Positions 1,621 through 32,000 are shown, numbered from the stretch's first letter. The stretch: 32,000 bases of DNA from Candidatus Altimarinota bacterium (GCA_041659405.1 JBAZYK010000011.1:31674-63673), one strand, 5' to 3'. A program made the numbers and translations. The notes: generated by a model from the sequence alone, not told the origin.

Positions 1621-3060
1621 CTACTTTAAAGCCTCATTCAAAGCCTCCGCCTTCATTAAAGTTTCCTCATATTCTTTTGTAGGATCAGAATCAGCCACAA
1701 TTCCGCCGCCAACCTGCGCATAAATTTTCCCGTTTTTCTGCAAAATCGTCCGAATCAAAATATTTAGATCGGAGTCGCCCAAAAGGTTCACAAAACCTGC
1801 AGAACCGGTGTAAATCCCTCGCTTAAAATCCTCCAAACCATCAATAATCTGCATGGTCCGCTTTTTAGGACAGCCGGTAATTGACCCACCCGGAAACACC
1901 GCCCGCAGCGCATCCCAAAAATCCTTTCCATAAGCCAATTTTCCTTCAACTTTCGCAATTGTATGAATCACATGTGAATATTTTTCGATTTTCTGAAAAT
2001 CAGTAACCTTTACACTGCCCGCCTCGCAAACTTTTCCAAGATCATTTCGCTCCAAATCGGTAATCATAGCGAGCTCCGCTTTTTCCTTTTCCGAAGCCAA
2101 AAGTTCCGCCTCATGCGCCGCATCTTCTTCCGCATTTTTTCCACGAGCCACCGTGCCTTTAATCGGCCAGGTTTCAACTTTCGTTCCTCTTTTTCTAAGC
2201 AACAATTCCGGCGAAGAACTCATAATTTTGAACTCCGGGAACTCAAAATAACAGCTAAACGGTGAAGGATTAAGGCTTGAAAGTTTTTGATAGATTTTCC
2301 AGCCATCAACCGTACAATCCGCCGCAAATCTCTGTGAAAAATTAACCTGATAAGTTTCTCCATCCTTCAAATATTGTTTTACCGCCGCGATTTTCTCTTG
2401 ATATTGAGCAAAACTCACATTCGATTTTAAAGCTCCCATTTCGCCGACAGACCGTGGTCTAACCGGCTTCTGCAAATCCTCTTTCATGGTTTCAATTTTT
2501 TTACGCGCCTGCAAATCCGTCTCGGCCAAAGCCAAAAAATACAATTCATTTTCCTGATGATCAAACGCAAAAACCTTATCCACAAAAGCAAAAACAAAAT
2601 CAGGCAGAACCACATCATCAAAAACTTTCTGTTCAACTTCCATCAAATTCGCGCCAAAATCATAACTGAAATAACCCGCCGCTCCACCAAAAAACGGCAC
2701 CGGCGCCGCCCCATGATAATGAATGAATTTAAAAATATTTTGCAAAACGTCCAAAGGCTCCCCTTCCACAATTTGACCGGTATTTTTCTTCTCAAAATCC
2801 AAAAAATCACGACGCTTTAAAAGCTGCGTCACCCCTTTGGTGGAACCTGCCCCACTTGCCTCACGCATACTGGAACAAACCATGTATGGATCATAACCAA
2901 TATAAGAATAGCGCTCGGACAAGCCACTTTTCTTCCCCGCAAAATCTCCGCCACTTTGCAGCAAAAACGCGTAATCTCCGCGAACATGATCAAAAAAACT
3001 GGCCGGATTTTCATCCTTGGCCAGTTTCCTTTTCTCGAAAAAAAGTTTTACGTATTTCAT
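1621..3060 (-). CDS. pabB: Chorismate-binding enzyme, aminodeoxychorismate synthase component I / anthranilate synthase component I family
   Basis: 479 aa. The C-terminal half has family signatures (SPELLLR...PIKGT..RG, LxxSEKExAELxMIxDLxRND, FPGGSITGxPK, RGxYxGxxG). The PabB assignment over TrpE rests only on size, absence of trp genes and a class IV aminotransferase downstream. Confidence 0.75.
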   Translation of the reverse strand: MKYVKLFFEKRKLAKDENPASFFDHVRGDYAFLLQSGGDFAGKKSGLSERYSYIGYDPYMVCSSMREASGAGSTKGVTQLLKRRDFLDFEKKNTGQIVEGEPLDVLQNIFKFIHYHGAAPVPFFGGAAGYFSYDFGANLMEVEQKVFDDVVLPDFVFAFVDKVFAFDHQENELYFLALAETDLQARKKIETMKEDLQKPVRPRSVGEMGALKSNVSFAQYQEKIAAVKQYLKDGETYQVNFSQRFAADCTVDGWKIYQKLSSLNPSPFSCYFEFPEFKIMSSSPELLLRKRGTKVETWPIKGTVARGKNAEEDAAHEAELLASEKEKAELAMITDLERNDLGKVCEAGSVKVTDFQKIEKYSHVIHTIAKVEGKLAYGKDFWDALRAVFPGGSITGCPKKRTMQIIDGLEDFKRGIYTGSAGFVNLLGDSDLNILIRTILQKNGKIYAQVGGGIVADSDPTKEYEETLMKAEALNEALK

Positions 3061-3134
3061 ACAAATTGTTCACAAGCGACAAAAGTTCAACAGAACAATT
3101 TTTAACTCAATTCCACAAAAAACAAATCCACCAA

Positions 3135-3623
3135 TTAAACCCGTTCGTCTTCCCCGTAAACATGTTCATACTCGCTCTTAGCGTAGTCAAAAAGTTCATC
3201 TGGATTGAAAAATCTTGGAACTTCTTTCATGGCAGTTTCAACGGAATCGGAAGCGTGAACAACGTTACAAGCCACGCTCATAGCCAAATCACCGCGGATA
3301 GATCCGGCTTCGGCACTGCGAGCCTTGGTAATTCCACATAAAATGCGAATAGCTTGAACAACTTCCAAGCCCTCCAAACAAATCGCAACCACCGGCGAAC
3401 TTTGCATAAACCTTGTTACACCGGGGAAAAATGGCTTATCGGCAATATGCGCGTAATGTTCACGCAAAACAGCTTCACTCAAACTCATCATTTTAATACC
3501 AACAACTTTTAGACCTTTCTTTTCAAAACGGTTCAAAACTTCTCCAATAAGCCCTCTTTGAACTCCATCCGGTTTAATTAAAACGAGTGTTTTTTCTTTG
3601 ATACCTTTAAATTCCATTGCCAT
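3135..3623 (-). CDS. ndk: Nucleoside diphosphate kinase
   Basis: KTLVLIKPDGVQRGLIGEVLNRFEKKGLKVVGIKMM and the active-site NVVHASDS motif. Confidence 0.95.
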   Translation of the reverse strand: MAMEFKGIKEKTLVLIKPDGVQRGLIGEVLNRFEKKGLKVVGIKMMSLSEAVLREHYAHIADKPFFPGVTRFMQSSPVVAICLEGLEVVQAIRILCGITKARSAEAGSIRGDLAMSVACNVVHASDSVETAMKEVPRFFNPDELFDYAKSEYEHVYGEDERV

Positions 3624-4814: not shown

Positions 4815-6080
4815 CTAAAACTTTAGTAGCTTCAAGAATCGTTCCTCATCATCATACGGCCCAATTATCGCAATTCGCAAATTTTCTTCTTTGAACAAAT
4901 CACGCGCCACGCGACCAAGATCCTCTACAGTTACAGCATCAACCATTTTCATAATTTCTTCCGGTGTCTCTACATTTCCATACAAAAGTTCAAATTTACC
5001 AAGCAAATGCGCGTATTCTTCCGAATCTTCCAGACGCAAAACCATTTTTCCTTTCAAAAATTCCTTTGATTTCAGCAACTCCGCTTCCGGCACGGGTTCG
5101 GTTAAAACTTTTTTATACTCTTCCACAATTGCGGTAATTGCCTTGTCTATGCCGTCTAAAGAAACTCCGGCATTCGTGGAAAAAGTTCCGGTATCGGTAT
5201 AATCGTCAGTTGAAGTGTTGATGTAATAAGCCAATCCCTGCTTTTCACGAACCGACAAAAACATTCTGGAACTCATATTCCCACCCAAAACAATTCCCAA
5301 TAATTTTGCGGCATAGTGATCTTTATGCTGTTCCGAATAACCCGGAAAACCCAAAATCACATGAGCCTGTTCGGTTTTTTTATTGCGAAGATAAATCTTT
5401 TTTTCAACCTTAACATCTTTTACCTCATTAAAATTGTAGGCTTTTTCGGCATCCTCAAACGTAAACAATTTTGAAACAGCCTTCACCATTTCATCATGAT
5501 CAACATTTCCGGAAACGGCAATTACCGTATTCCCAGGCACATAAAGCTCTTTCTTGTACTTAATGAAATCCGCCTGTTTTATGCCCATGATCACCTCTTT
5601 AGTCCCCACCTGATCCCAACCAATCGGCTGATCACCATAAATCAAACGCTCAAAATCCCAACCAATCTGGTACATTGGCGTATCCTGATACATATTATAT
5701 TCTTCCATAATTACCCCACGCTCTTTGTCGATCTCCGCCGGATCAAACTTGGAATGAATCAACATATCCGCCAAAACATCCAAAGCCAAATCCACATGCC
5801 TGTCCGCAACCTTTATATAATAGCCGGCATATTCTTTGCCTGTGAAAGCGTTAAAATCGCCACCAACCGAATCAATTGCCTCCGAAACCTCTTTAGTATT
5901 CGTATATTTTTCAGCGCCCTTAAAAAACATGTGCTCCAAAAAATGCGAAATTCCATTAAGTTCTTTTATTTCATAACGCGATCCCGCTCCCACTAAAATC
6001 AAAACCGTTACCGATTTTGTATTATCGAGTTTTTTAGTCACAATTCTAAGTCCATTTTGTAAAGCTGTTTTCTTTAACAT
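4815..6080 (-). CDS. M16 family (pitrilysin/insulinase-like) zinc peptidase
   Basis: Inverted zinc motif HFLEH (HxxEH) near the N-terminus. The 421-aa two-domain length is typical of M16B. Confidence 0.9.
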   Translation of the reverse strand: MLKKTALQNGLRIVTKKLDNTKSVTVLILVGAGSRYEIKELNGISHFLEHMFFKGAEKYTNTKEVSEAIDSVGGDFNAFTGKEYAGYYIKVADRHVDLALDVLADMLIHSKFDPAEIDKERGVIMEEYNMYQDTPMYQIGWDFERLIYGDQPIGWDQVGTKEVIMGIKQADFIKYKKELYVPGNTVIAVSGNVDHDEMVKAVSKLFTFEDAEKAYNFNEVKDVKVEKKIYLRNKKTEQAHVILGFPGYSEQHKDHYAAKLLGIVLGGNMSSRMFLSVREKQGLAYYINTSTDDYTDTGTFSTNAGVSLDGIDKAITAIVEEYKKVLTEPVPEAELLKSKEFLKGKMVLRLEDSEEYAHLLGKFELLYGNVETPEEIMKMVDAVTVEDLGRVARDLFKEENLRIAIIGPYDDEERFLKLLKF

Positions 6081-11427: not shown

Positions 11428-11502
11428 AGGCCCTTCGTATAACGGCTAGTACAAAGGTTTCCAAAACCTTTAGCGCGGGTTCGACTCCTGCAGGGCCTGC
11501 CA
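11428..11502 (+). tRNA. tRNA-Trp (anticodon CCA), CCA encoded
   Basis: Hand-folded cloverleaf: acceptor AGGCCCT/AGGGCCT, D stem GTAT/GTAC, anticodon stem AAGGT/ACCTT with loop TTCCAAA, T loop TTCGACT, discriminator G, CCA. Confidence 0.9.
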
Positions 11503-18562: not shown

Positions 18563-20140
18563 TCAAGGTTTATACGTTTTAGCGAATTGCGCGCCAATAT
18601 CGATCAAATCACTTCCATCAATTTGACCATCATAAGTTGTGTCCGTAAGGGCATCAAAAGTTTGGTCCGCATCCACTTCACCAAAATGCTTCGCCAGCTT
18701 CTCTAAATCACGTCCATCAACCCGATCAGAACGATCATTGTCACCCGCCAAACCTCTGGTATCTTTTTGGACAATTTCAACCGGCAAACTCACAATTTGG
18801 CCATTCAAAGCCAAAACCTGATAATAATATTCATGATTTGGCACAATCGAGCCACCCTTTACCACTCCATCCTTATCCACAAAAGTGGTTTGCGCGATTT
18901 CACCCAAACTTATCCACTGACTATGCGCATCTTTTCTCAACACGCGATAACCGGTAGCGCCAACAACCGCATCCCAATTTAATTGCAAACTATATCTGTC
19001 TGTCCCTTCAGCCGCTTTCAAATTGGCAATTGCAGCAATCTGTTTGTCCTTAGGCGTAAAAGTCTGATCGGTAAATTGCGCAGCAGTATCCTGAGTCGGA
19101 TTTGCCACAAAACTTTTCGCATCAAAATGCAAAGTACTCGCAACCCCATTGCCACCTACCACATCAAATTGAACAGTCAAAAGATCGCCACTTCCGGAAA
19201 CCCCGGTTTTTACCGCATTAGTTCGAGCTTCCGCCAAAACCAACTTTCCTTCGATTCCATTTTCAAGCGCCGACTGAAATGAAGTTTGAACCTGTCCATT
19301 TTGGCTCAAGAAAGGTTTAATCGCCGCACTCTTAAAATGCAAAACTGCCGGATCGTAAGTCAAATCAAAACCATAAGCAAAAAGATCCTGCGCATTGGTA
19401 ATTTTGAAGGTAACATTAAGCAGATCCCCCACATAAGGAGTTTGTGAATCCAAACTCAATTCTATTTTCTGACCGGAAACCGGATCAATTTTCTGCGCAC
19501 TATTCACTCTTTTAGGAGTACCAATAATTGCGGATCCGGCAGAAGAAGTGTCCCCTGCTCCGGTTGAACTTGCCCAATTGGAAGCCAGATCGCCATTCGT
19601 TGCAGAATCAATACGTTCCATGGAAGCTTTAGTTACCGCACTACCCGCAAACCAGGCTCCGGCAGAACTATTCACCACATCAATTGAACTATCACCGGAA
19701 TCAAAAAGTTCCAAACTTTGCCCGCTATTGGCCAAGGTAATATTAATAATCGCATCCGCCGTAACAGTATTCACAGCCACTTCACGATCTTCAATCAAAA
19801 AATATCCATGCGCCGCAATTGTTCCACTCAAAATCGTATAGATATAAGCTCCGTGATTATCGTTGATAGACCAGTTTGTAAGATCAACCACCTGATCCGA
19901 ATTATTATAGAGCTCAATCCACTCATCCGTAGAAGAATCCGCAGATCCAGCCCAAGCCACTTCATTGATCACAACCGAACCCGGAGTTGCAGCTTTAGCC
20001 CTTAACAAAGAGCCCAACCAGCCATCAGCAAATCCTAAAGAAAAAACAAAAGTCGCTAAAACGGTAATCGCCAATCCTCGCCAAAATCTTCGCGGAGACG
20101 CCTCCGCCCGCAATAAACACTTCATGTGTTTTTGTTTCAT
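18563..20140 (-). CDS. Secreted surface protein: lamin-tail domain, cohesin-like domain, FN3-like domain, dockerin-like repeats
   Basis: Signal or TM segment; LTD signature VVINEVAWAGS..DEWIELYN; cohesin-like LNVTFKITNAQDLFAYGFDLTYDPAVLHF; C-terminal Ca-binding dockerin-type repeats DNDRSDRVDGRDLEKL and DTTYDGQIDGSDLIDI. An alternative ATG is at 20125. Confidence 0.8.
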   Translation of the reverse strand: MKQKHMKCLLRAEASPRRFWRGLAITVLATFVFSLGFADGWLGSLLRAKAATPGSVVINEVAWAGSADSSTDEWIELYNNSDQVVDLTNWSINDNHGAYIYTILSGTIAAHGYFLIEDREVAVNTVTADAIINITLANSGQSLELFDSGDSSIDVVNSSAGAWFAGSAVTKASMERIDSATNGDLASNWASSTGAGDTSSAGSAIIGTPKRVNSAQKIDPVSGQKIELSLDSQTPYVGDLLNVTFKITNAQDLFAYGFDLTYDPAVLHFKSAAIKPFLSQNGQVQTSFQSALENGIEGKLVLAEARTNAVKTGVSGSGDLLTVQFDVVGGNGVASTLHFDAKSFVANPTQDTAAQFTDQTFTPKDKQIAAIANLKAAEGTDRYSLQLNWDAVVGATGYRVLRKDAHSQWISLGEIAQTTFVDKDGVVKGGSIVPNHEYYYQVLALNGQIVSLPVEIVQKDTRGLAGDNDRSDRVDGRDLEKLAKHFGEVDADQTFDALTDTTYDGQIDGSDLIDIGAQFAKTYKP

Positions 20141-20240
20141 AATTTGTTTTTAAGAAATACAAGAAATACTTTCAGCTAAAAGTATCGCCAAAATATCACC
20201 ATCAAATTAAAAAAATCTAAACCCAAAGTGAAATAAACTT

Positions 20241-20278
20241 AAAAACGCGGGACGCCAATGTTATTCAGCAATCCCGCG
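20241..20278 (-). terminator. Rho-independent terminator of the 20319..21815 gene
   Basis: CGCGGGA (20246-20252) pairs with TCCCGCG (20272-20278). On the minus strand the stem is followed by TTTTT (plus-strand AAAAA at 20241-20245). Confidence 0.7.
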
Positions 20279-23621: not shown

Positions 23622-23976
23622 GCATGAAAAAATCCGAATAGTGCGAAAACTTTTCGTAGCGAATACCCTGCCCTTTTGGAAAATACTAAAAAACTTTTCA
23701 GGGAAAAGGTTTTTAGATTTAAAAAAACTCCATCATGCCGTTGAACCTCAAGGATACTAAACCCCCAGTACCCAGTATGGGTGCCCGCAAACCAACCGCA
23801 CACGGTTGGATATATTGAGCCCCCTTAAACAATGCGAAGAGAGAGTATATGGGGTCCTGACGTGCAAAATAGAGTAACCAAAATGTAACAAAAATCAGCC
23901 AAAATATCAAGGACTTCCCGGCTTAAAAAATAGTCAACTAGCCATTGTATCTGGTCAGTCGACAACGCCCCTATTG

Positions 23977-25022: not shown

Positions 25023-25112
25023 GGAGAGATCGCATAGTGGCCGAGTGCGCATGCTTGGAAAGCATGTAACGTCGCAAGGCGTTCGAGGGTTCGAATCCCT
25101 CTCTCTCCGCCA
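25023..25112 (+). tRNA. tRNA-Ser (anticodon GGA), CCA encoded
   Basis: Acceptor GGAGAGA/TCTCTCC, anticodon stem CATGC/GCATG with loop TTGGAAA, long variable arm, T arm GAGGG TTCGAAT CCCTC. Confidence 0.9.
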
Positions 25113-25291: not shown

Positions 25292-25837
25292 ATGAAAAAA
25301 ATTTTATTACCACTGCTACTCATTGTTTTCATTCAAACGGGTTGTGGTAACGGCGGAATTAAAGAAGAAGCCCACACCCAACGACCGGGTGAGTTTAAAA
25401 ATGGGCAACTGTATGCCACTTTTAAGATAGATAATTTCCAGATGAACTATCCCAATTGGCCGAATTTTGATACAAGCAAAGCGGCCGACGCGGACAAATA
25501 CAAGCTTGCAGTAGCCAATGAAGGCTGCAGTTTTATTATTAAAGTCTCACCGGTTCCCTCAAACATTTCCTTTAAAGATTATGCCGAGAATGCGCTTCAA
25601 GAAGGGACAAAACTATATCCAACAAAGATTTTGATCAAAGACGTTAAGGACACTTTTGCCCATTTTGAAGGCGAAATATCAATGAGCAACGTTATCATGA
25701 AAAGTGTTACCTACGCCTATTTCACCGGCAAAAAAGAATCTGTCAGTGTCGGTTTGGTTGCCCGAAAAGACCAATTTGACCAAGGCTGCACGCCAATAAT
25801 GGATGAAGCGATCAGCAGCGTTAAAGTGGACTTCTAA
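25292..25837 (+). CDS. Putative lipoprotein, unknown function
   Basis: MKKILLPLLLIVFIQTGC lipobox. The 3' end overlaps the recombinase 3' end by 17 nt (convergent genes). Confidence 0.6.
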   Translation: MKKILLPLLLIVFIQTGCGNGGIKEEAHTQRPGEFKNGQLYATFKIDNFQMNYPNWPNFDTSKAADADKYKLAVANEGCSFIIKVSPVPSNISFKDYAENALQEGTKLYPTKILIKDVKDTFAHFEGEISMSNVIMKSVTYAYFTGKKESVSVGLVARKDQFDQGCTPIMDEAISSVKVDF

Positions 25838-26693
25838 TTCTGGCCAAAGCCACACTTGTAAGTCTGGTATAAATTTGAGTTGTGCGGATACTGCTGTGCC
25901 CCAAAAGCTCCTGCAAATAACGAATATCCACACCATTTTCCAGCAAATGAGTCGCAAAACTGTGCCGCAACGCATGAAATCCGGCAATTTTATTGATCCC
26001 CGCTTTTTGCATAGCCTGCAAAAAAACTTTCTGAGCCGTTCGCGAATGCAACTTCCCTCCCCTCTGGCTTTCAAAAACAAAATCGCCCAAACTCTTACCA
26101 AAAATAAACGCCTTCAATTCATCTTTTATTTTACCCGGCATCACCGAAAGACGATCCTTGCCACCTTTTCCTTTTCGCACACAAACAAGCACACGCTCAA
26201 AATCCAAATCAGCCACCTTCAAATTAACAACCTCACTCACCCGCAAACCAGATCCATAAGCCAAAGAAAGCATTAACCGATGTTTCTGATTTTTAAGAGC
26301 TGCCAGTAGTGCCAAAATCTCTTCCTTCAAGAAAACAACAGGCAAACGCCGAGATCTTTTCGCAAACTTTAAAGGAATTTGTGTTTGATTCTTCAGCACC
26401 TCCCGATAAAAAAATTTAATCGAATTCAAATAAAGATTCACCGTTTGCGGAGCAAAGCCCTTATCGTGCTTCCACAAAAGAAAAGTCCGAATTTTCTCGA
26501 CATCCAAAATTTCAATATTAGAGCCCGCTTCGCAAGCAGTAGCAATAGTCATATCCTGCGGCCCCAAAGCTCTGGAATCATTTTTCAAAAATGCCAAAAA
26601 CACACTCAAACATGACCGATAAGCCTTAGCCGTCCGCTGACTATGCCCACGAAGCTTCACTTCCTCCACCAAACGATCCAAATAATATTTCAT
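25821..26693 (-). CDS. Tyrosine site-specific recombinase, IntI/Xer-like, 290 aa
   Basis: Catalytic set: GLRVSE (R), HALRHSFATHLL (HxxR), LLGHSS (H), TTQIYTRL (Y). By eye it is close to IntI1 blocks RRLPVV, HRL..LLYG.G.R.SE...L.V.DLDF and GKG.KDR, and to the terminal (V/I)RSPL. It has no equivalent of the long IntI-specific insertion between GKG.KDR and HxLRH. Confidence 0.9.
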   Translation of the reverse strand: MKYYLDRLVEEVKLRGHSQRTAKAYRSCLSVFLAFLKNDSRALGPQDMTIATACEAGSNIEILDVEKIRTFLLWKHDKGFAPQTVNLYLNSIKFFYREVLKNQTQIPLKFAKRSRRLPVVFLKEEILALLAALKNQKHRLMLSLAYGSGLRVSEVVNLKVADLDFERVLVCVRKGKGGKDRLSVMPGKIKDELKAFIFGKSLGDFVFESQRGGKLHSRTAQKVFLQAMQKAGINKIAGFHALRHSFATHLLENGVDIRYLQELLGHSSIRTTQIYTRLTSVALARIRSPL

Positions 26694-26781
26694 AACTTTT
26701 TTATTATAAAACTAAAGACCCCCAAAGAAGACTCAATGGAGGTCGGTAGCAAGATGCTACGGAAGAAGAATTGCCAATAAC

Positions 26782-26811
26782 ATTGTAGTATTTTTCATTG
26801 TTCATGGTCAA
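26782..26811 (-). promoter_or_regulatory. Sigma70-like promoter for the recombinase gene, TTGACC-N18-TACAAT
   Basis: Minus strand: -35 at 26811-26806 and -10 at 26787-26782, about 90 nt upstream of the ATG at 26693. Confidence 0.45.
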
Positions 26812-26835: not shown

Positions 26836-26904
26836 TGGTGGAGATAAGGGGAATTGAACCCCTGGAAGATGAATGGCAATTCCTCCTCCGCGCCTGCTAT
26901 CCCC
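26836..26904 (-). other. tRNA-like element (acceptor stem, T arm, CCA) without a canonical D or anticodon arm
   Basis: Minus strand reads GGGGATAGCAGGCGCGGAGGAGGAATTGCCATTCATCTTCCAGGGGTTCAATTCCCCTTATCTCCACCA. The acceptor GGGGATA/TATCTCC includes G3:U70 and A73. T arm is AGGGG TTCAATT CCCCT. Only 34 nt lie between them, forming one GGAGGA/TCTTCC hairpin. Confidence 0.45.
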
Positions 26905-27045
26905 GCCCAAGGCCAGCTGAGAACAAAATACACAAAAAACATTAAAAAATTCTAAACCCAAAATGAAAAAAACTTAAAAAACATCACTTCCCAAAACCCA
27001 CCATTCTCTGCTACTATCGCGCCATAAAGCACCGCAAGACACTAG

Positions 27046-27323
27046 TTGTGCAACAAGTTGCTCACGCGTTTATTAATCAATCTTCCTAAAACTCAAAAAA
27101 ACCTGGAAAAGTAAGAAGCTCCCGGTCTGTTCGCAACTCATCGCACAACAGCACACATGCGGTTCGCTGGCTTTCGGCTAATCCAAGGCACAAACTGCTC
27201 TTCAAAAAGGTTTAAGAAACCTATAAATCTCAAGAAAACTCTCACGCTCTCCCAACTTATTTGCAGCAGTCGCCCTTCGGGCATATTATACCGCTGCCAA
27301 TAAGTTCGCATGGCGTGCGAACG
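27046..27323 (+). mobile_element. Non-coding cassette R, copy 1 (97-nt body plus about 180-nt attC)
   Basis: A 278-bp unit that by eye shows no differences from copies at 30133-30410 and 30821-31098. It starts at the TT of GTTGTGC and ends at the G of GCGAACG|TT. Its attC R'' box GCACAAC (27143-27149) is the reverse complement of its own start GTTGTGC. The left flank is unique sequence (attI side). Confidence 0.85.
27261..27289 (+). promoter_or_regulatory. Sigma70-like promoter inside the R attC, TTGCAG-N17-TATTAT, reading into the downstream cassette
   Basis: Exact 17-nt spacer. Also present at 30348-30376, 31036-31064 and 31847-31875. The R4 homology ends exactly at the last base of the -10 hexamer. 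Confidence 0.5.
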
Positions 27324-27371
27324 TTAGCTGCCATACTCCCTGCGTGAAATTTTAATCTTAATAAAAAAACT

Positions 27372-27677
27372 ATGAAATTATCCACAATTTACAACGCAGC
27401 TCTGGAAAAAGCCGACGCAGATGCGGCAGAAGTCATGATGCGCATGAGTCCAAAGTTAGGTTTAAGTAATCTTGACGACCTTCAAGGTAAAAAAAATCGA
27501 CAAGAAGCCTTAGAAAGAGTTAATTTTGTTTATAATTTATCTGGTCCCATTGGAAAAATTGGATTTAGAGTCATAGAAGAAATAAGGGCAATAGATTGGG
27601 GTGATCGAATGGAAGAATTTCATGGAATAAACCAACAGGAATGGTATAAAGAACTTGGCAATTTCCAAAAAAATTAA
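27372..27677 (+). CDS. Cassette A ORF, hypothetical protein, 101 aa
   Basis: Single ATG ORF filling cassette 27324-27808. Confidence 0.6.
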   Translation: MKLSTIYNAALEKADADAAEVMMRMSPKLGLSNLDDLQGKKNRQEALERVNFVYNLSGPIGKIGFRVIEEIRAIDWGDRMEEFHGINQQEWYKELGNFQKN

Positions 27678-27697
27678 AATTTCCCTCCGGTCGTACA

Positions 27698-27814
27698 GCA
27701 GCTAACAGCGCCCAACCGGTTCGCCCTGCGGGGCTCTCCCAAATTTTGTGGCGGTGAGTCGCTCCGCTCCCAATTATACCGCCACAAAACTTCGGTTAGG
27801 CGCGGACGTTATAT
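27698..27814 (+). other. attC-like recombination site of cassette A
   Basis: R'' GCAGCTAAC (27698-27706) is the exact reverse complement of the cassette start GTTAGCTGC (27323-27331). L'' GCGCCCAACCG pairs with L' CGGTTAGGCGC (1 mismatch). The right end is GCGCGGACG|TT with the G at 27808. Confidence 0.85.
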
Positions 27815-27954
27815 GAAATATGCTTTTCTTTTTACGGCTAACGCCTTACACTTTTCTATAATGAACAAATTTTATTTTTAATTTTTTAGAGGGGGTATAT
27901 GGTATTTTTTCCGCTACGCTCCGAAAATGATTTATTAAATATAATTAAAAACAT

Positions 27955-28920
27955 ATGAAAAACGAAGTAGAAATTTTTGATGAAGAAAATACAATCGTCA
28001 TTGACGATGAATATACAACTAATACTTTTGAATTTTTTCCTGACGAGAAAAAATTCAAGATCGATGTGAGTATCAAAGATGATTTTCATCATAATTATTC
28101 AACAATTGAATATAAAATTTCAGATGATCCTATTAATTTAAAAATGCGTACGATAGAGCTTTTTCATGAATTTATAGGCGGGAAAAGTGATTCAATAAAA
28201 GACGGGGTTGTCTTGGAATCGGAACTCAGAAAAGATAAATTTAATAACCAAGAAAGAATAGACGATTTGAAAAAAGAAGTAGAGTGGTCAAATGTTGTCA
28301 TATTCGGCAACCCCGAAGTCAATCTTTATATTCTATCTAAACACCCAGAGATAATCTCAAAAGATGATTATAGGAAATTTTTGCGTCAGTCTATAGAGAG
28401 AATTAGAGATGGCGTTGCTAAAGTAAAAGAAATAGTAAAAACTGATTTTCATGGATTGGAAATCCATACGGGCGACCATGGAATGAGTATTTGGTATCCA
28501 GACAATGAATCGGAAAAGAAAGAAAGTGAGGCATATTGGGATTTACCGAAAGATAAGCGTGATAATTCTGCCTATGGTAAGAAGCTAAAATATGTCGAGG
28601 ATTTTAATAAATCGCTTTTTGATGAAAAATCTTCAAGTTATGTTGGCATTTCTGAAATTGAGTTTAGAAGTAGTGATGAAATAGTTGAATATGTCCAAAA
28701 ACTACTTGATAAAAAAGACGAGCCCGCTAAAAAAGAAGTTAAACCTAAAATTTCAAAAACAAAAGGATTTATTATTTCTCTGTTTATAACACTTATTCTT
28801 TCATGGGTTGTAAGCTGGTTTGTGGATATACACCCATTTTTGATTTTTATAATCGTGCAAGTTATCGCATTTGCACAAAGCATAATTGGTGGTTGGCTAG
28901 AAAAAATATTAGAAAAATAA
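27955..28920 (+). CDS. Cassette B gene 1: acidic soluble domain with two C-terminal TM helices, unknown function
   Basis: 321 aa, very AT-rich codons. The C-terminus GFIISLFITLILSWVVSWFV and PFLIFIIVQVIAFAQSIIGGWL gives two hydrophobic helices. Confidence 0.65.
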   Translation: MKNEVEIFDEENTIVIDDEYTTNTFEFFPDEKKFKIDVSIKDDFHHNYSTIEYKISDDPINLKMRTIELFHEFIGGKSDSIKDGVVLESELRKDKFNNQERIDDLKKEVEWSNVVIFGNPEVNLYILSKHPEIISKDDYRKFLRQSIERIRDGVAKVKEIVKTDFHGLEIHTGDHGMSIWYPDNESEKKESEAYWDLPKDKRDNSAYGKKLKYVEDFNKSLFDEKSSSYVGISEIEFRSSDEIVEYVQKLLDKKDEPAKKEVKPKISKTKGFIISLFITLILSWVVSWFVDIHPFLIFIIVQVIAFAQSIIGGWLEKILEK

Positions 28921-28933
28921 AATAGGTAATCGC

Positions 28934-29920
28934 ATGAATCAAAACGATTTGAAAATCATAGAAATTGGTCATCAAATCAGGGATCTCTTTAATAATTCCA
29001 CAATAAAAAAGACACAGGTTTATTCAAGAAAACAAAGTGGCGATTGGAATCAATTTTGTGCAGCATTAGATACACTTGAAGATACCTGCTTAGCGATAGA
29101 GAATTTTCAAAAAGATTCGAATAATTTATTTATAAAAAATCCATATTTAGCAACTTACGGACTTTTGCAGGCTCTTTTTATCCAACAAGACGCTGTAAAT
29201 TTTTTAAAAATATCCTTATTTGGTATAAGCAATAAAATTGATTGGAAGGACAAAAAATATTCAGAACTTTTTAAAATTAGGCAAGTCAGAAACGAAACCA
29301 TAGGACACCCCGTAAAAAAGGAGAACAAAGGCAATAAATCAAAGTATGAAAATGACGAAATCACCTCTTGCACCATTGATCGCTCATCTTTGAGCAAAGA
29401 CGGTTTTAGATACATGTTATGGATGCACTCAAAAACAGAAAGCAAAACGATAAAATTTACGGACATCATCAGTCAACAAGATAAATATCTCGGAAATGAA
29501 TTAGAAATTGTTATGAAAGAAATTCAAAAAGAAGAGAATCAACATAAAACAAAATTTAAAAATGAAAAATTGGCCGATTTGTTAAATAAACCTTCTCTGT
29601 ACCAGATAAATCATATTTATGGCGTTCAATGGAATGACCATTTAGCATGGCCTAGTTTTAATCATTATCACGAATTATACAAAAAAATAAGAAAGAGTTT
29701 AGAAGATCGCTATGGTAAATTTGGCGAAACTTTGAGGATTCCTGGAACGGAAGAAGTAATCAAAAAATTAGATTATGTATTTGGCAAAATTGAAACATTT
29801 CAAAAAACTGGTAATTTTGAAAATTACGAACTTGAGGTTTATATTGACGCTCTTGACGCTGGAATTAACGAGTTAAAAACTCATTTAGTAGAAGTTGATC
29901 AAGAATTTGAAATACAATAA
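28934..29920 (+). CDS. Cassette B gene 2: protein with a HEPN-like Rx5H motif (candidate RNase/Abi-type effector)
   Basis: 328 aa. FKIRQVRNETIGHP contains R-N-E-T-I-G-H, which fits the HEPN Rx4-6H signature, after a helical segment (YGLLQALFIQQDAVNFL). It starts 13 nt after gene 1. Confidence 0.6.
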   Translation: MNQNDLKIIEIGHQIRDLFNNSTIKKTQVYSRKQSGDWNQFCAALDTLEDTCLAIENFQKDSNNLFIKNPYLATYGLLQALFIQQDAVNFLKISLFGISNKIDWKDKKYSELFKIRQVRNETIGHPVKKENKGNKSKYENDEITSCTIDRSSLSKDGFRYMLWMHSKTESKTIKFTDIISQQDKYLGNELEIVMKEIQKEENQHKTKFKNEKLADLLNKPSLYQINHIYGVQWNDHLAWPSFNHYHELYKKIRKSLEDRYGKFGETLRIPGTEEVIKKLDYVFGKIETFQKTGNFENYELEVYIDALDAGINELKTHLVEVDQEFEIQ

Positions 29921-30038
29921 GGAGTCTTGGCTTCGGGGCATTCACCCCCCAGCCCCTCTGCCCCTACGCCAAGACAAAAATAAAATTTGTTAATTACAAA
30001 AAAGTGCCGACTATCGTCGGAAAAAAGAAAAGCATACA

Positions 30039-30138
30039 TCATATAGCAGCGTATATCTGGTTCGCGCTTGGCTAACGCCAAATGCTCACCCATATTGCTC
30101 CCTACGGTCGCAACATCAGATATGCGCGAACGTTGTGC
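30039..30138 (+). other. attC-like recombination site of cassette B
   Basis: R'' TCATATAGC (30039-30047) matches the reverse complement of the cassette start GTTATATGA (27808-27816) at 8 of 9 positions. L'' GCGTATATCTG pairs with L' CAGATATGCGC. The right end is GCGCGAACG|TT with the G at 30132. Confidence 0.75.
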
Positions 30139-30410
30139 AACAAGTTGCTCACGCGTTTATTAATCAATCTTCCTAAAACTCAAAAAAACCTGGAAAAGTA
30201 AGAAGCTCCCGGTCTGTTCGCAACTCATCGCACAACAGCACACATGCGGTTCGCTGGCTTTCGGCTAATCCAAGGCACAAACTGCTCTTCAAAAAGGTTT
30301 AAGAAACCTATAAATCTCAAGAAAACTCTCACGCTCTCCCAACTTATTTGCAGCAGTCGCCCTTCGGGCATATTATACCGCTGCCAATAAGTTCGCATGG
30401 CGTGCGAACG
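30133..30410 (+). mobile_element. Non-coding cassette R, copy 2
   Basis: 278 bp, matches R1 by eye. attC R'' is at 30230-30236 and the promoter at 30348-30376. Confidence 0.85.
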
Positions 30411-30465
30411 TTGTTGGAAATTATAAAAAATGCTACAATCACCCTTTAATCATTAAAAATAAGAT

Positions 30466-30705
30466 ATGAGAGATTATCCATCCGGAATGCCAGAAGTCAG
30501 CACAATAGAAGAAGCAATTGATGAGTTAGTTGGTCAATCTATTGGAACAAAAGTCCATTTAAATCAAAGTCTAGACAAGCCAGAAGACATTGAAAGTAAA
30601 CTTAAAGAAAAAGGCATAAAAGTTAGGGTTGATAAAGAATCAGATCCACATGATGGACGTAGAGGTGGAAGTTCAATAACATATATGCTAACTATTATTG
30701 AATAG
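30466..30705 (+). CDS. Cassette D ORF, hypothetical protein, 79 aa
   Basis: Single ATG ORF in cassette 30411-30820. Confidence 0.55.
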   Translation: MRDYPSGMPEVSTIEEAIDELVGQSIGTKVHLNQSLDKPEDIESKLKEKGIKVRVDKESDPHDGRRGGSSITYMLTIIE

Positions 30706-30730
30706 GGGCTAGAACGCATTTTTTATCACA

Positions 30731-30826
30731 TCCAACAACAGCGCCCATGTGGTTCGGCTGCGGCCTCTCCCAAATTTACTTTCCGCTTCGCTCCAAGTAA
30801 ACTTCACATAGGCGCGAACGTTGTGC
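30731..30826 (+). other. attC-like recombination site of cassette D
   Basis: R'' TCCAACAAC (30731-30739) is the exact reverse complement of the cassette start GTTGTTGGA (30410-30418). L'' GCGCCCATGTG pairs with L' CACATAGGCGC. The G is at 30820. Confidence 0.85.
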
Positions 30827-31098
30827 AACAAGTTGCTCACGCGTTTATTAATCAATCTTCCTAAAACTCAAAAAAACCTGGAAAAGTAAGAAGCTCCCGG
30901 TCTGTTCGCAACTCATCGCACAACAGCACACATGCGGTTCGCTGGCTTTCGGCTAATCCAAGGCACAAACTGCTCTTCAAAAAGGTTTAAGAAACCTATA
31001 AATCTCAAGAAAACTCTCACGCTCTCCCAACTTATTTGCAGCAGTCGCCCTTCGGGCATATTATACCGCTGCCAATAAGTTCGCATGGCGTGCGAACG
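30821..31098 (+). mobile_element. Non-coding cassette R, copy 3
   Basis: 278 bp, matches R1 by eye. attC R'' is at 30918-30924 and the promoter at 31036-31064. Confidence 0.85.
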
Positions 31099-31126
31099 TT
31101 AGCCGCCATACTTAACTTAATCGATA

Positions 31127-31513
31127 ATGAAAAAACTATTACCAATTATCATAGTCGCTATTTTTTTACTTAGTGGATGTGTAGAAATGAAACCACCAGG
31201 AAATTGGTCCAAAGGGTCAGACAATAGGCTTATACTACAAGATTGGGCATTCTTTTATTTCCCAGAAGGTATAAATAAAGGAAGTGTAGTTGGACCAATT
31301 TTTCCTTATAACAACTCTTTGGAAGTATGCAAAAAAACAGCTCAAGAAAAATATCCTGAAAAAGATTATTTTTGTGGAACAGAATGCATATTTGTATGGG
31401 ATGGAATGACAATCGAACACTGCAAAAAAGGAGTAGTTGGGATATATTCAAAAGGAGAATATAAATTTATAATTAATCCTAAAATACAGGGTTTACACAT
31501 TACTGTGGATTAA
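31127..31513 (+). CDS. Cassette F ORF, putative lipoprotein, 128 aa
   Basis: MKKLLPIIIVAIFLLSGC lipobox. Single ORF in cassette 31099-31632. Confidence 0.6.
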   Translation: MKKLLPIIIVAIFLLSGCVEMKPPGNWSKGSDNRLILQDWAFFYFPEGINKGSVVGPIFPYNNSLEVCKKTAQEKYPEKDYFCGTECIFVWDGMTIEHCKKGVVGIYSKGEYKFIINPKIQGLHITVD

Positions 31514-31519
31514 ACGCAC

Positions 31520-31638
31520 GGCGGCTAACAGCGCCTAACCGGTTCGCCTGCGGGCTCTCCCAAATTTTTTGTGGCGGTGGTCGCTCCGCTCCAAATTATA
31601 CCGCCACAAAAAACTTCGGTTAGGCGCGAACGTTGTGC
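31520..31638 (+). other. attC-like recombination site of cassette F
   Basis: R'' GGCGGCTAAC (31520-31529) is the exact reverse complement of the cassette start GTTAGCCGCC (31098-31107). L'' GCGCCTAACCG pairs perfectly with L' CGGTTAGGCGC. The G is at 31632. Confidence 0.9.
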
Positions 31639-31875
31639 AACAAGTTACTCACGCACTTATTAACCGATCTTTCTAAAGCTCAAAAAGCCTGGAAAAGTAT
31701 TCATCTCCCGGTCTGTTCGCAACTCATCGCACAACAGCACACATGCGGTTCGCTTGCTTTCGGCCAATCTAAGGCACAATCTGCTCATCAAAAAGGTTTA
31801 AGAAACCCATAAATCTCAAGAAAACTCTCACGCTCTCCCAACTTATTTGCAGCAGTCGCCCTTCGGGCATATTAT
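31633..31875 (+). mobile_element. Non-coding cassette R, copy 4, diverged and truncated within its attC
   Basis: Numerous substitutions in the first third and in the middle, and one 1-nt deletion, relative to R1-3. The CCCGGTCTGTTCGCAACTCATCGCACAACAGCACACATGCGGTTCGC core and the 3' part are conserved. Homology stops after TATTAT (31875); the right attC arm is missing. Confidence 0.8.
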
Positions 31876-31952
31876 GGATCAGTAGATAATTAGTTTGAAA
31901 AAGTTACGCAATCAAGTTTTAATGATAGCAATTATCATTTAACGAAATTGCT

Positions 31953-32000
31953 ATGTTGGAACATGACTTGTTATGGGATCTTTTGCCTGATGGGTTGAAA
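31953..32000 (+). CDS. Partial ORF (16 codons: MLEHDLLWDLLPDGLK), runs off the window end
   Basis: ATG at 31953 follows the unique sequence that replaces the R4 right arm. It is too short to assign. Confidence 0.3.
   Translation, partial: MLEHDLLWDLLPDGLK

Follow-up and report, generated by a model that had tools for sequence, protein, structure and literature searches.

What is R, a 278-nt sequence that occurs four times in a 32,000-nt stretch of DNA from a Candidatus Altimarinota bacterium (Patescibacteria), and what might it do for the genes that stand between its copies? The whole stretch is called the window here, and all coordinates refer to it. R is a gene-less, noncoding cassette of a chromosomal integron-like array, has its own attC recombination site, and is bounded by G|TT; we are confident that it is a paralogous cassette amplified by site-specific recombination. 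Three of its copies (R1 to R3) are 100% identical over 278 nt in a repeat search and a four-way alignment, and a chance origin of three such copies is impossible. The fourth, R4, is 92% identical to them over 244 alignment columns, and its similarity is lost entirely at 31876; the same junction recurs in other assemblies (L007/L012 and L011). An earlier reading made without database searches, referred to below as the sequence-only reading, had described three identical copies and one diverged, truncated copy, in agreement with the alignment. It had also described R as alternating with open reading frame (ORF) cassettes, which is not strictly so, as the cassettes A and BC both sit between R1 and R2.

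The boundaries of R are those of an integron cassette. Its copies begin with TTGTGC after a G and end with GAACG before TT, i.e., at G|TT crossovers. To the left of R stand attI (R1) and then the attC ends of BC, D, and F, and to the right of R1 to R3 stand the starts of A, D, and F, so that one and the same unit is found in four left and three right contexts, as is asked of a mobile unit. In each cassette of the array, the initial 7 to 10 nt are reverse-complementary to the R'' box of the same cassette, and such complementarity between R' and R'' is the circular-permutation signature of integron cassettes. The R'/R'' pair is GTTGTGC/GCACAAC in R, where complementarity extends to 17 nt at 82%, GTTAGCTGC/GCAGCTAAC in cassette A, GTTGTTGGA/TCCAACAAC in cassette D, and GTTAGCCGCC/GGCGGCTAAC in cassette F. 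The proper cassette boundaries that the sequence-only reading ascribed to R are therefore borne out, all of them lying at G|TT with R' complementary to R''. Candidates of other kinds, namely, a miniature inverted-repeat transposable element, an insertion sequence (IS), or a group II intron, were rejected: R has no terminal features beyond the attC logic, and its ends are the G|TT crossover.

The attC site of R was recognized with a covariance model built from 13 attC sites of the lineage, four from the window and nine from related arrays, with R itself excluded. This model matches the attC of R1 end to end at 27139-27329 (54 bits; E of about 8e-12), matches end to end again at 30226-30416 and 30914-31104, and gives a partial match at 31725-31887. 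It finds exactly 8 sites in the 32-kb window, all on the plus strand, all within 27139-31887, and none elsewhere, which makes an array where an array is taken as at least two attC sites in one orientation. When the attC of R was folded in its own form, with the initial 17 nt of R itself attached to the 3' part, the bottom strand was more stable (-44.8 kcal/mol) than the top strand (-33.7 kcal/mol), and the R and L boxes were paired. The bottom strand is predicted to form a long imperfect hairpin with bulges beside the R box (GTT/GAAC), which might be counterparts of the canonical extrahelical G and T.

The site is also unusually long. It measures about 185 nt (191 nt, versus 78 to 142 nt for the 13 other lineage sites under the same extraction), which exceeds the usual attC length range of about 57 to 141 nt. 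The division of R into a body of about 97 nt and a long attC, put at about 180 nt in the sequence-only reading, is correct because R'' begins at position 98 of R. The excess length is a 79-nt segment at the variable first-hairpin position. An attC in a related array, L016, is split at the same variable position (approximately 2769-3242, minus strand of that locus) by an insertion of about 300 nt that carries a 78-aa ORF. The split falls between GGTTCG and CTCACCCAA, and the direct repeat CGCTCGCT and the inverted repeats AAATAAAATTATT and AATAATTTTATTT border the insertion, which looks like a small mobile element that would target the attC variable region.

The junctions attI-R, R-A, BC-R, R-F, and F-R4 are confirmed by three other assemblies (ENA, JGI, and Logan), and the exact number and order of the identical R copies depend on the assembly of the window's own contig. 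SRR6484324, ERZ27249449, and JGI 3300014208 contain DNA of the same population. Strain variants that share a single R-X-R position might have been threaded serially into one contig, in which case there would be fewer identical copies per genome. Consistent with such an effect, short-read assemblies of the same population break within R (L001, L010, L011, and L012), and the loops A-BC and D each begin and finish in identical R sequence. However, any genome with A-BC or D holds at least two copies of R plus R4, because such contigs start and end in R. Typical paired-end inserts are longer than 278 nt, so repeats of this size can usually be resolved. Altogether we regard an assembly effect on copy number and order as very unlikely. 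The coordinates of R, of its parts, and of the features around it are collected in Table 1.

TABLE 1 Features of the R cassettes and of the integron-like array in the window
Feature	Position	Strand	Remarks
R1, gene-less cassette	27046-27323	+	First position after attI; identical to R2 and R3
R2, identical copy	30133-30410	+	Between cassettes BC and D
R3, identical copy	30821-31098	+	Between cassettes D and F
R4, older copy, 92% identical	31633-31875	+	Cut inside ATTATA by unrelated DNA from 31876
R body, 97 nt	27046-27142	+	Fastest-diverging part of R
attC of R	27139-27329	+	R'' GCACAAC at 27143-27149, then L'' CATGCG; other arm L' CGCATG, R' G|TT
R-specific extra segment, 79 nt	27168-27246	+	Variable hairpin 1 position, between GGTTCGC and CTCTCCCAA; from attC alignment
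Sigma-70-like pair TTGCAG-N17-TATTAT	27261-27289	+	Inside attC hairpin 2; sequence pattern
Equivalents of TTGCAG-N17-TATTAT	30348-30376, 31036-31064, 31847-31875	+	In R2, R3, and R4
ATTATA, the attC-family hexamer ATTnTA	27285-27290		Bottom strand reads TATAAT
Weak terminator-like hairpin AGGTTTCTTAAACCT, then TTTTTG	27202-27222	-	About 60 to 70 nt downstream of bottom-strand TATAAT; read from sequence, speculative
Xer-like tyrosine recombinase, 290 aa, presumed cassette integrase	25821-26693	-	Divergent from array; PF00589 and PF13495
Candidate Pc promoter TTCCCA-N18-TACTAT	26988-27017	+	28 nt upstream of attI crossover; sequence conservation
attI core ...AAGACACTAG|TT	27030-27047	+	Crossover between 27045 and 27046; conserved in 7 loci
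Cassette A	27324-27808	+	101-aa ORF at 27372-27677, with attC
Cassette BC	27809-30132	+	ORFs of 321 and 328 aa, with attC
Cassette D	30411-30820	+	79-aa ORF at 30466-30705, with attC
Cassette F	31099-31632	+	128-aa lipoprotein-like ORF at 31127-31513, with attC

Divergence between the copies is unevenly spread. R1 and R4 differ at 14 sites in the first 73 nt (about 19%) and at 6 in the next 171 (Fisher P = 1.3e-4), and positions 74 to 123 and 178 to 244, blocks of 50 and 67 nt, are invariant. These blocks answer to the attC left arm and the promoter loop, where the sequence-only reading had placed the only long invariant stretches. That reading had also called R ORF-less, with short ORFs that are interrupted in R4. 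The longest ORFs of R1 to R3, of 48 aa on the plus strand and 57 aa on the minus strand, are indeed both broken in R4, and no ORF is conserved between R1 and R4. Neither ORF has a match in Pfam or NCBIfam, and neither is ever called as a gene in the public collection; on these grounds R was rejected as a small-protein gene. A structured cis-regulatory RNA leader might be suggested by the fold of R as a whole (z = -2.25), but the attC hairpin (z = -2.7) is the sole source of that signal. Neither the body nor the insert folds better than shuffled sequences on either strand (z between -0.08 and +0.65; +0.65 on the plus and +0.02 on the minus strand for the body, +0.57 on the minus strand for the insert at 27168-27246), so a structured RNA in the R-specific parts was rejected. 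A known RNA family was rejected as well: an Rfam search at gathering and E-value thresholds returned no family for R, the best score being 16.8 bits for Ref68 against a threshold of 44. Covariation analysis would have no power with only two distinct sequences (R1 to R3, and R4), and the R4 changes checked by hand against the predicted pairs (G15A, and G124T with T134C) break pairs and are not compensatory. The structured RNA envisaged in the sequence-only reading thus finds no footing, and we consider a small protein or an RNA leader encoded by R extremely unlikely. Two weak collinear direct repeats (72 to 74% identity; 27076-27094 with 27223-27241, and 27118-27135 with 27293-27310) link the R body to the 3' part of its own attC and could be the trace of an old internal duplication, or chance.

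Relatives of R were sought at several levels. BLAST and array reading found no R-like sequence in five related arrays (L013, L014, L016, L018, and L019), and a scan of GTDB genomes and JGI metagenomes for exact 21-mers recovered, besides the same population (L007), two chance matches that fall in coding genes of Flavobacteriales and Actinomycetota. Homologues in other genomes of the lineage, which the sequence-only reading had suggested looking for, were accordingly not found in the related arrays or, at the level of exact 21-mers, in GTDB and JGI, and R is without close homologues in related species in these searches. Two DNA-pattern scans of viral contigs gave no match to R, and a search of viral contigs gave no relatives of the recombinase. 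The L016 array, whose integrase is 58% identical, begins with a gene-less cassette of 236 nt (4968-5203, minus strand of that locus), which has an attC of 142 nt, under the same extraction, that carries TTGACC-N18-TATTTT. It was rejected as a homologue of R, as only the attC ends align and the bodies do not.

The recombinase that faces the array is not a typical integron integrase. Against the integron integrase model TIGR02249 it scores 197 bits in two stretches, below the cutoff of 265, and against PRK15417 it scores 137 versus 435; it scores about equally against archaeal XerA. When the protein is compared with VchIntIA (2a3v), its residues 197 to 213 replace chain residues 181 to 240, and about 43 aa of the IntI-specific region are gone. 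The IntI-specific additional domain that marks the IntI clade is therefore missing, because 17 residues stand where VchIntIA has about 60. Homologues of the recombinase number in the thousands and are short Patescibacterial recombinases. We compared contigs of relatives with 56 to 66% recombinase identity (L013, L014/L015, L016, L018, and L019); these recombinases and that of the window are 270 to 290 aa long, Xer-like, and without the IntI-specific domain. In L013, L014, L016, and L018, small ORFs that share one orientation and have attC sites of the same family between them lie opposite the 5' side of the recombinase gene; the contigs of L015 and L019 extend no further than attI and the first cassette. 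Flanking core genes vary from one of the relatives' loci to another.

The region between recombinase and array is conserved as well. The attI core ends AG|TT in 7 loci, and a candidate Pc of the form TTCnCA-N18-TAnnAT is invariant at fixed spacing in 7 aligned loci. A Pint-like TTGACC-N18-TAnAAT is conserved before the recombinase gene in four aligned loci (the window, at 26782-26811, L017, L019, and L014). The loci L014 and L015 have an identical recombinase and different first cassettes, and their sequences diverge from the first base after GTT, which is cassette turnover at attI. Taken together, the locus works like an integron and fails on the integrase domain by which integrons are defined.

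Several further elements accompany the platform. A tRNA-like element (26836-26912, minus strand) lies between the integrase promoter and attI and is also found in L001, L017, and L019. Its acceptor stem is GGGGATA/TATCTCC with G3.U70, and a T-arm and ACCA are present; its match to the ends of the transfer-messenger RNA (tmRNA) model reaches 33 bits, below threshold, and it is not called by ARAGORN. L013 and L014 have this platform without the element, which is therefore not required, and island integration was rejected as the cause of the array. A degenerate copy of its 3' half apparently lies in the 5' untranslated region (UTR) of the integrase gene (approximately 26720-26775). Pairing in trans between the element and this UTR, which the apparent covariation might suggest, was rejected; a partial duplication explains it better, because the UTR segment, as read from the sequences, resembles the element's own 3' half. 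A 57-nt repeat with 81% identity (20189-20245 and 26924-26980) has its copies, on the minus strand, just upstream of a gene starting at 20140 and of the tRNA-like element. The copies contain TTAAGT-N17-TAGAAT or TAGATT and may be a promoter or operator that the two units have in common. Ordinary core features also lie upstream of the integron, namely, 6S RNA (23723-23878, minus strand; Rfam, 50 bits), tRNA-Ser (25023-25112), and tRNA-Trp (11428-11502).

What, then, could R do for its neighbors? Its attC contains, in hairpin 2, the pair TTGCAG-N17-TATTAT, which points at the next cassette, as the sequence-only reading had it, and which recurs at the corresponding position of every R copy. R4 does not differ from R1 to R3 in the motif region, and the site scores 9/12 in a generic promoter scan. 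The 17- to 18-nt spacer equals the spacing of Pint (TTGACC-N18-TACAAT) and Pc (TTCCCA-N18-TACTAT), and TATTAT is the -10 of the conserved Pc candidate in L013 to L015. Cassettes A, D, and F all lie directly downstream of an R copy, as first described; the start codon was said to be 80 to 90 nt from the -10 element, which suits A (83 nt) and D (90 nt) and not F (63 nt).

The element is not peculiar to R, contrary to what had first been supposed, and sits in an attC module common to the lineage. The hexamer ATTnTA is invariant in 11 attC sites from three arrays (the window, L013, and L016), the stems of which differ in sequence. The hairpin 2 module consists, in order, of CTCnCCCAA, a stem with its 5' arm starting TTG, a GC mini-hairpin, ATTnTA, and the 3' arm. 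On the top strand, 8 of the 11 sites read TTGnnn-N16-18-TATTnT; on the bottom strand, all 11 read TAnAAT, preceded in L016_2, L016_3, L016_5, L016_7, and L018_1 by TGn, the extended -10. The attC sites of BC, D, and L014_1 are without the motif and yet are bounded normally. Because ATTnTA is invariant in the 11 sites and reads TAnAAT on the bottom strand, the region is an attC-family trait of ambiguous strand, and the motif could equally be a recombination determinant or a promoter on either strand. In L013, the last attC (approximately 2200-2300, minus strand of that locus) has lost its L'/R' end and keeps TTGCGC-N16-TATTAT some 25 to 30 nt before the start codon (ATG) of a GDT1-family core gene; this remnant may be a domesticated attC-derived promoter.

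Established integron biology suggests how R would have spread. The adjacent tyrosine recombinase would excise R as a circle and reinsert it at attI or at resident attC sites, and the donor copy could persist and copies accumulate, because excision uses one DNA strand and is resolved by replication. The outcome would be the three identical, recent copies and the one older copy. As to its effect, the likeliest possibility, which we advance tentatively, is a promoter acting in cis on transcription of the next cassette. Since the motif in hairpin 2 faces that cassette, each R could restart transcription 63 to 90 nt ahead of the A, D, and F start codons, and would thereby supplement the platform promoter Pc, as has been shown experimentally for gene-less Vibrio superintegron cassettes. 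The leaders of A (48 nt) and F (28 nt) are short and have no promoter-like site visible by eye.

A number of observations weigh against a promoter role for R. About 170 nt of R has no explanation in a promoter model, and if every attC carries the motif, R adds nothing unique. R-like sequence did not appear in the related arrays or in the exact 21-mer scan beyond its own population. Promoter-like sites between 26600 and 32000 number 19, versus 15.8 ± 3.9 in shuffled sequences, and are thus not above chance. On the top strand, the attC sites of A, F, and L013_1 have only a degraded AATTAT or CATTAT after a spacer of 19 nt, so conservation of the hexamer may serve recombination or an antisense promoter instead; indeed, ATTnTA is closer to the -10 consensus on the bottom strand than on the top. 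Cassette D has its own TGcTACAAT upstream of the ATG, and promoter calls made in silico were no guide to activity in the Vibrio study (PMC11014356). The mobile promoter cassette of the sequence-only reading accordingly stands in part: the -35/-10 pair is there, its spacing is good, and precedents exist (PMC11014356 and PMC6557892), but the element is not specific to R, and promoter-like sites in the region are not above chance. R is best seen as a near-minimal cassette, an attC with about 170 nt of unconstrained filler, and not as a dedicated promoter device.

A cassette of this kind may simply be selfish or neutral, a short, inexpensive attC unit that recombines efficiently and spreads by excision and reinsertion with no selected host function and with incidental promoter activity. 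Its spread would run through array junctions, possibly between strains, and several observations are consistent with this: R fills 4 of the 5 readable array junctions, the identity of R1 to R3 points to a recent burst, its R-specific parts are without an ORF, excess structure, or promoter-like site, the first 73 nt of the body diverge fast, and homologues outside the population were not found in the searches described above. The same explanation was raised explicitly for paralogous noncoding Vibrio cassettes (PMC1382264). On the other hand, the uneven divergence leaves two invariant blocks that could reflect constraint, although attC function or gene conversion explains them equally, and most tested gene-less Vibrio cassettes show promoter activity (PMC11014356). 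On balance we think the selfish explanation less likely than a promoter role, though not by much. The motif and the long attC might instead serve recombination only, with ATTnTA and the GC mini-hairpin as recognition or folding determinants, and the copies would then be uninformative about expression. The hexamer is invariant within an otherwise covarying hairpin in three arrays, and a recombinase without the IntI-specific region, which reads extrahelical bases, may need other determinants. The normal boundaries of BC, D, and L014_1 were counted on the same side, as showing the motif to be optional; an optional motif, however, makes an essential recognition role unlikely, and the -35-like TTG with its 16- to 18-nt spacing, kept in 8 of the 11 sites, is not obviously required for recombination. 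We hold a purely recombinational role to be improbable.

R might also act through its bottom strand. The minus-strand TATAAT (27290 down to 27285) could start an antisense RNA of about 60 to 75 nt that ends at the hairpin and T5 at 27222-27202, or a longer antisense transcript into the upstream cassette, and in either form it could be a small RNA, a silencer, or an insulator. The bottom-strand hexamer is exactly TAnAAT in the 11 sites, five sites have TGn before it, the conserved Pint of the lineage uses TAnAAT, the terminator-like hairpin lies inside the R-specific insert, and one antisense-promoter cassette is documented in Vibrio (PMC11014356). Against this, the bottom strand has no -35 at a usable distance and R itself has no TGn; the hairpin has only 2 G-C pairs and falls below the threshold of a terminator scan; and the insert shows neither excess structure on the minus strand nor an Rfam match. 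The two antisense forms, considered jointly, are in our view quite improbable. A wider proposal is that the attC itself is a promoter module in this lineage, so that arrays are transcribed cassette by cassette, and that R is a stripped-down, promoter-only form that spread recently to the junctions without a good upstream motif (attI, BC, and D) under a Xer-like recombinase without the IntI-specific domain. The idea of cassette-by-cassette transcription, and not from Pc alone, comes from TTGnnn-N16-18-TATTnT being kept while the stems differ. We regard the proposal as doubtful; if the attC-embedded motif is indeed a promoter, the model of cassette expression as an operon from Pc would not hold for this lineage.

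The proteins of cassettes A, B, C, D, and F have no match in Pfam, NCBIfam, or PADLOC. BC alone among the gene cassettes does not follow an R copy; its AT-rich leader of 146 nt (27809-27954) contains a perfect TATAAT at 27850-27855. Cassette D carries TGCTACAAT 30 nt before its ATG, although D follows R2. The unrelated DNA that cuts R4 (31876-32000) contains an ORF from 31953 that reads MLEHDLLWDLLPDGLK..., which may resemble the N terminus of IS5/IS1182-type transposases; the contigs of other assemblies stop here too.

How does this locus compare with known systems? It shares with the canonical integron a divergent tyrosine recombinase gene, an attI with G|TT, a conserved candidate promoter directed toward the array, cassettes that all run in one direction, and attC sites with R''/L''/L'/R' boxes whose bottom strand folds more stably than the top strand. 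Unlike the canonical integron, its recombinase has 17 aa where VchIntIA has about 60 and stays below the TIGR02249 cutoff, and its attC sites have a branched variable region with conserved motifs and R'-R'' complementarity of 9 to 17 nt. The context outweighs R in this respect: the recombinase to which the array is joined is short, Xer-like, and without the domain by which integron integrases are defined, and a conserved attI region and a Pc-like promoter accompany this recombinase in every relative with a sufficient contig, with a Pint-like promoter in the four aligned loci. Such arrays would probably be filed by IntegronFinder, which requires the IntI-specific domain, as attC clusters that have no integrase. 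A 2021 list of phyla with integrons (PMC8618304) does not include Patescibacteria, and full-text literature searches found no paper describing Patescibacteria integrons. The more novel aspect is the platform, i.e., an integron-like system that combines a recombinase without the IntI domain and an attC family with a conserved promoter-like motif. Group IIC-attC introns (PMC3001079) are likewise mobile elements located at attC sites, from which downstream cassettes can receive a promoter; R, unlike them, has no intron ribozyme, ORF, or Rfam match and is bounded by the crossover and not inserted within an attC.

The hypothesis of a promoter cassette is already known, because it was proposed or shown in three studies (PMC1382264, PMC11014356, and PMC6557892). 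In Vibrio, most of 29 gene-less cassettes had sense promoter activity, and one of the start sites fell within an attC (Blanco et al. 2024, PMC11014356). Like R, these Vibrionaceae cassettes are short and gene-less, have their own attC, and lie among promoterless gene cassettes. There, a sense promoter can switch on the downstream cassette and its activity was measured, whereas the promoter of R is a putative one, a sequence pattern; the host of R is a Patescibacterium with a recombinase without the IntI-specific domain, and the putative promoter of R lies in a motif common to many attC sites of the lineage. Treponema cassettes without ORFs, from the oral metagenome, drive reporters and were proposed and shown to serve the cassettes downstream as promoters (Tansirichaiya et al. 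2019, PMC6557892). One such cassette was tested there in the first position, next to Pc, and R1 is also first. Treponema is of a different phylum and has a canonical IntI, and repeated identical copies are not mentioned in the abstract of that study.

The closest parallel to the repetition of R is found in Vibrio, where noncoding cassettes tend to be paralogous in all arrays and a single family has 6 to 45 copies (Boucher et al. 2006, PMC1382264). Repeated noncoding cassettes are thus not atypical of integrons, as the sequence-only reading had held them to be. The Vibrio families have close homologues in other species, whereas a homologue of R was not found outside its population, and the array with R is small, with 8 attC sites readable before the window ends. 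Like R, however, the Vibrio families are repeated within one array with high identity between copies, and both selfish and promoter or regulatory-RNA explanations were proposed for them. R adds an example from a very different lineage to that 2006 debate, in which repeated noncoding cassettes are seen either as selfish or as regulating the array.

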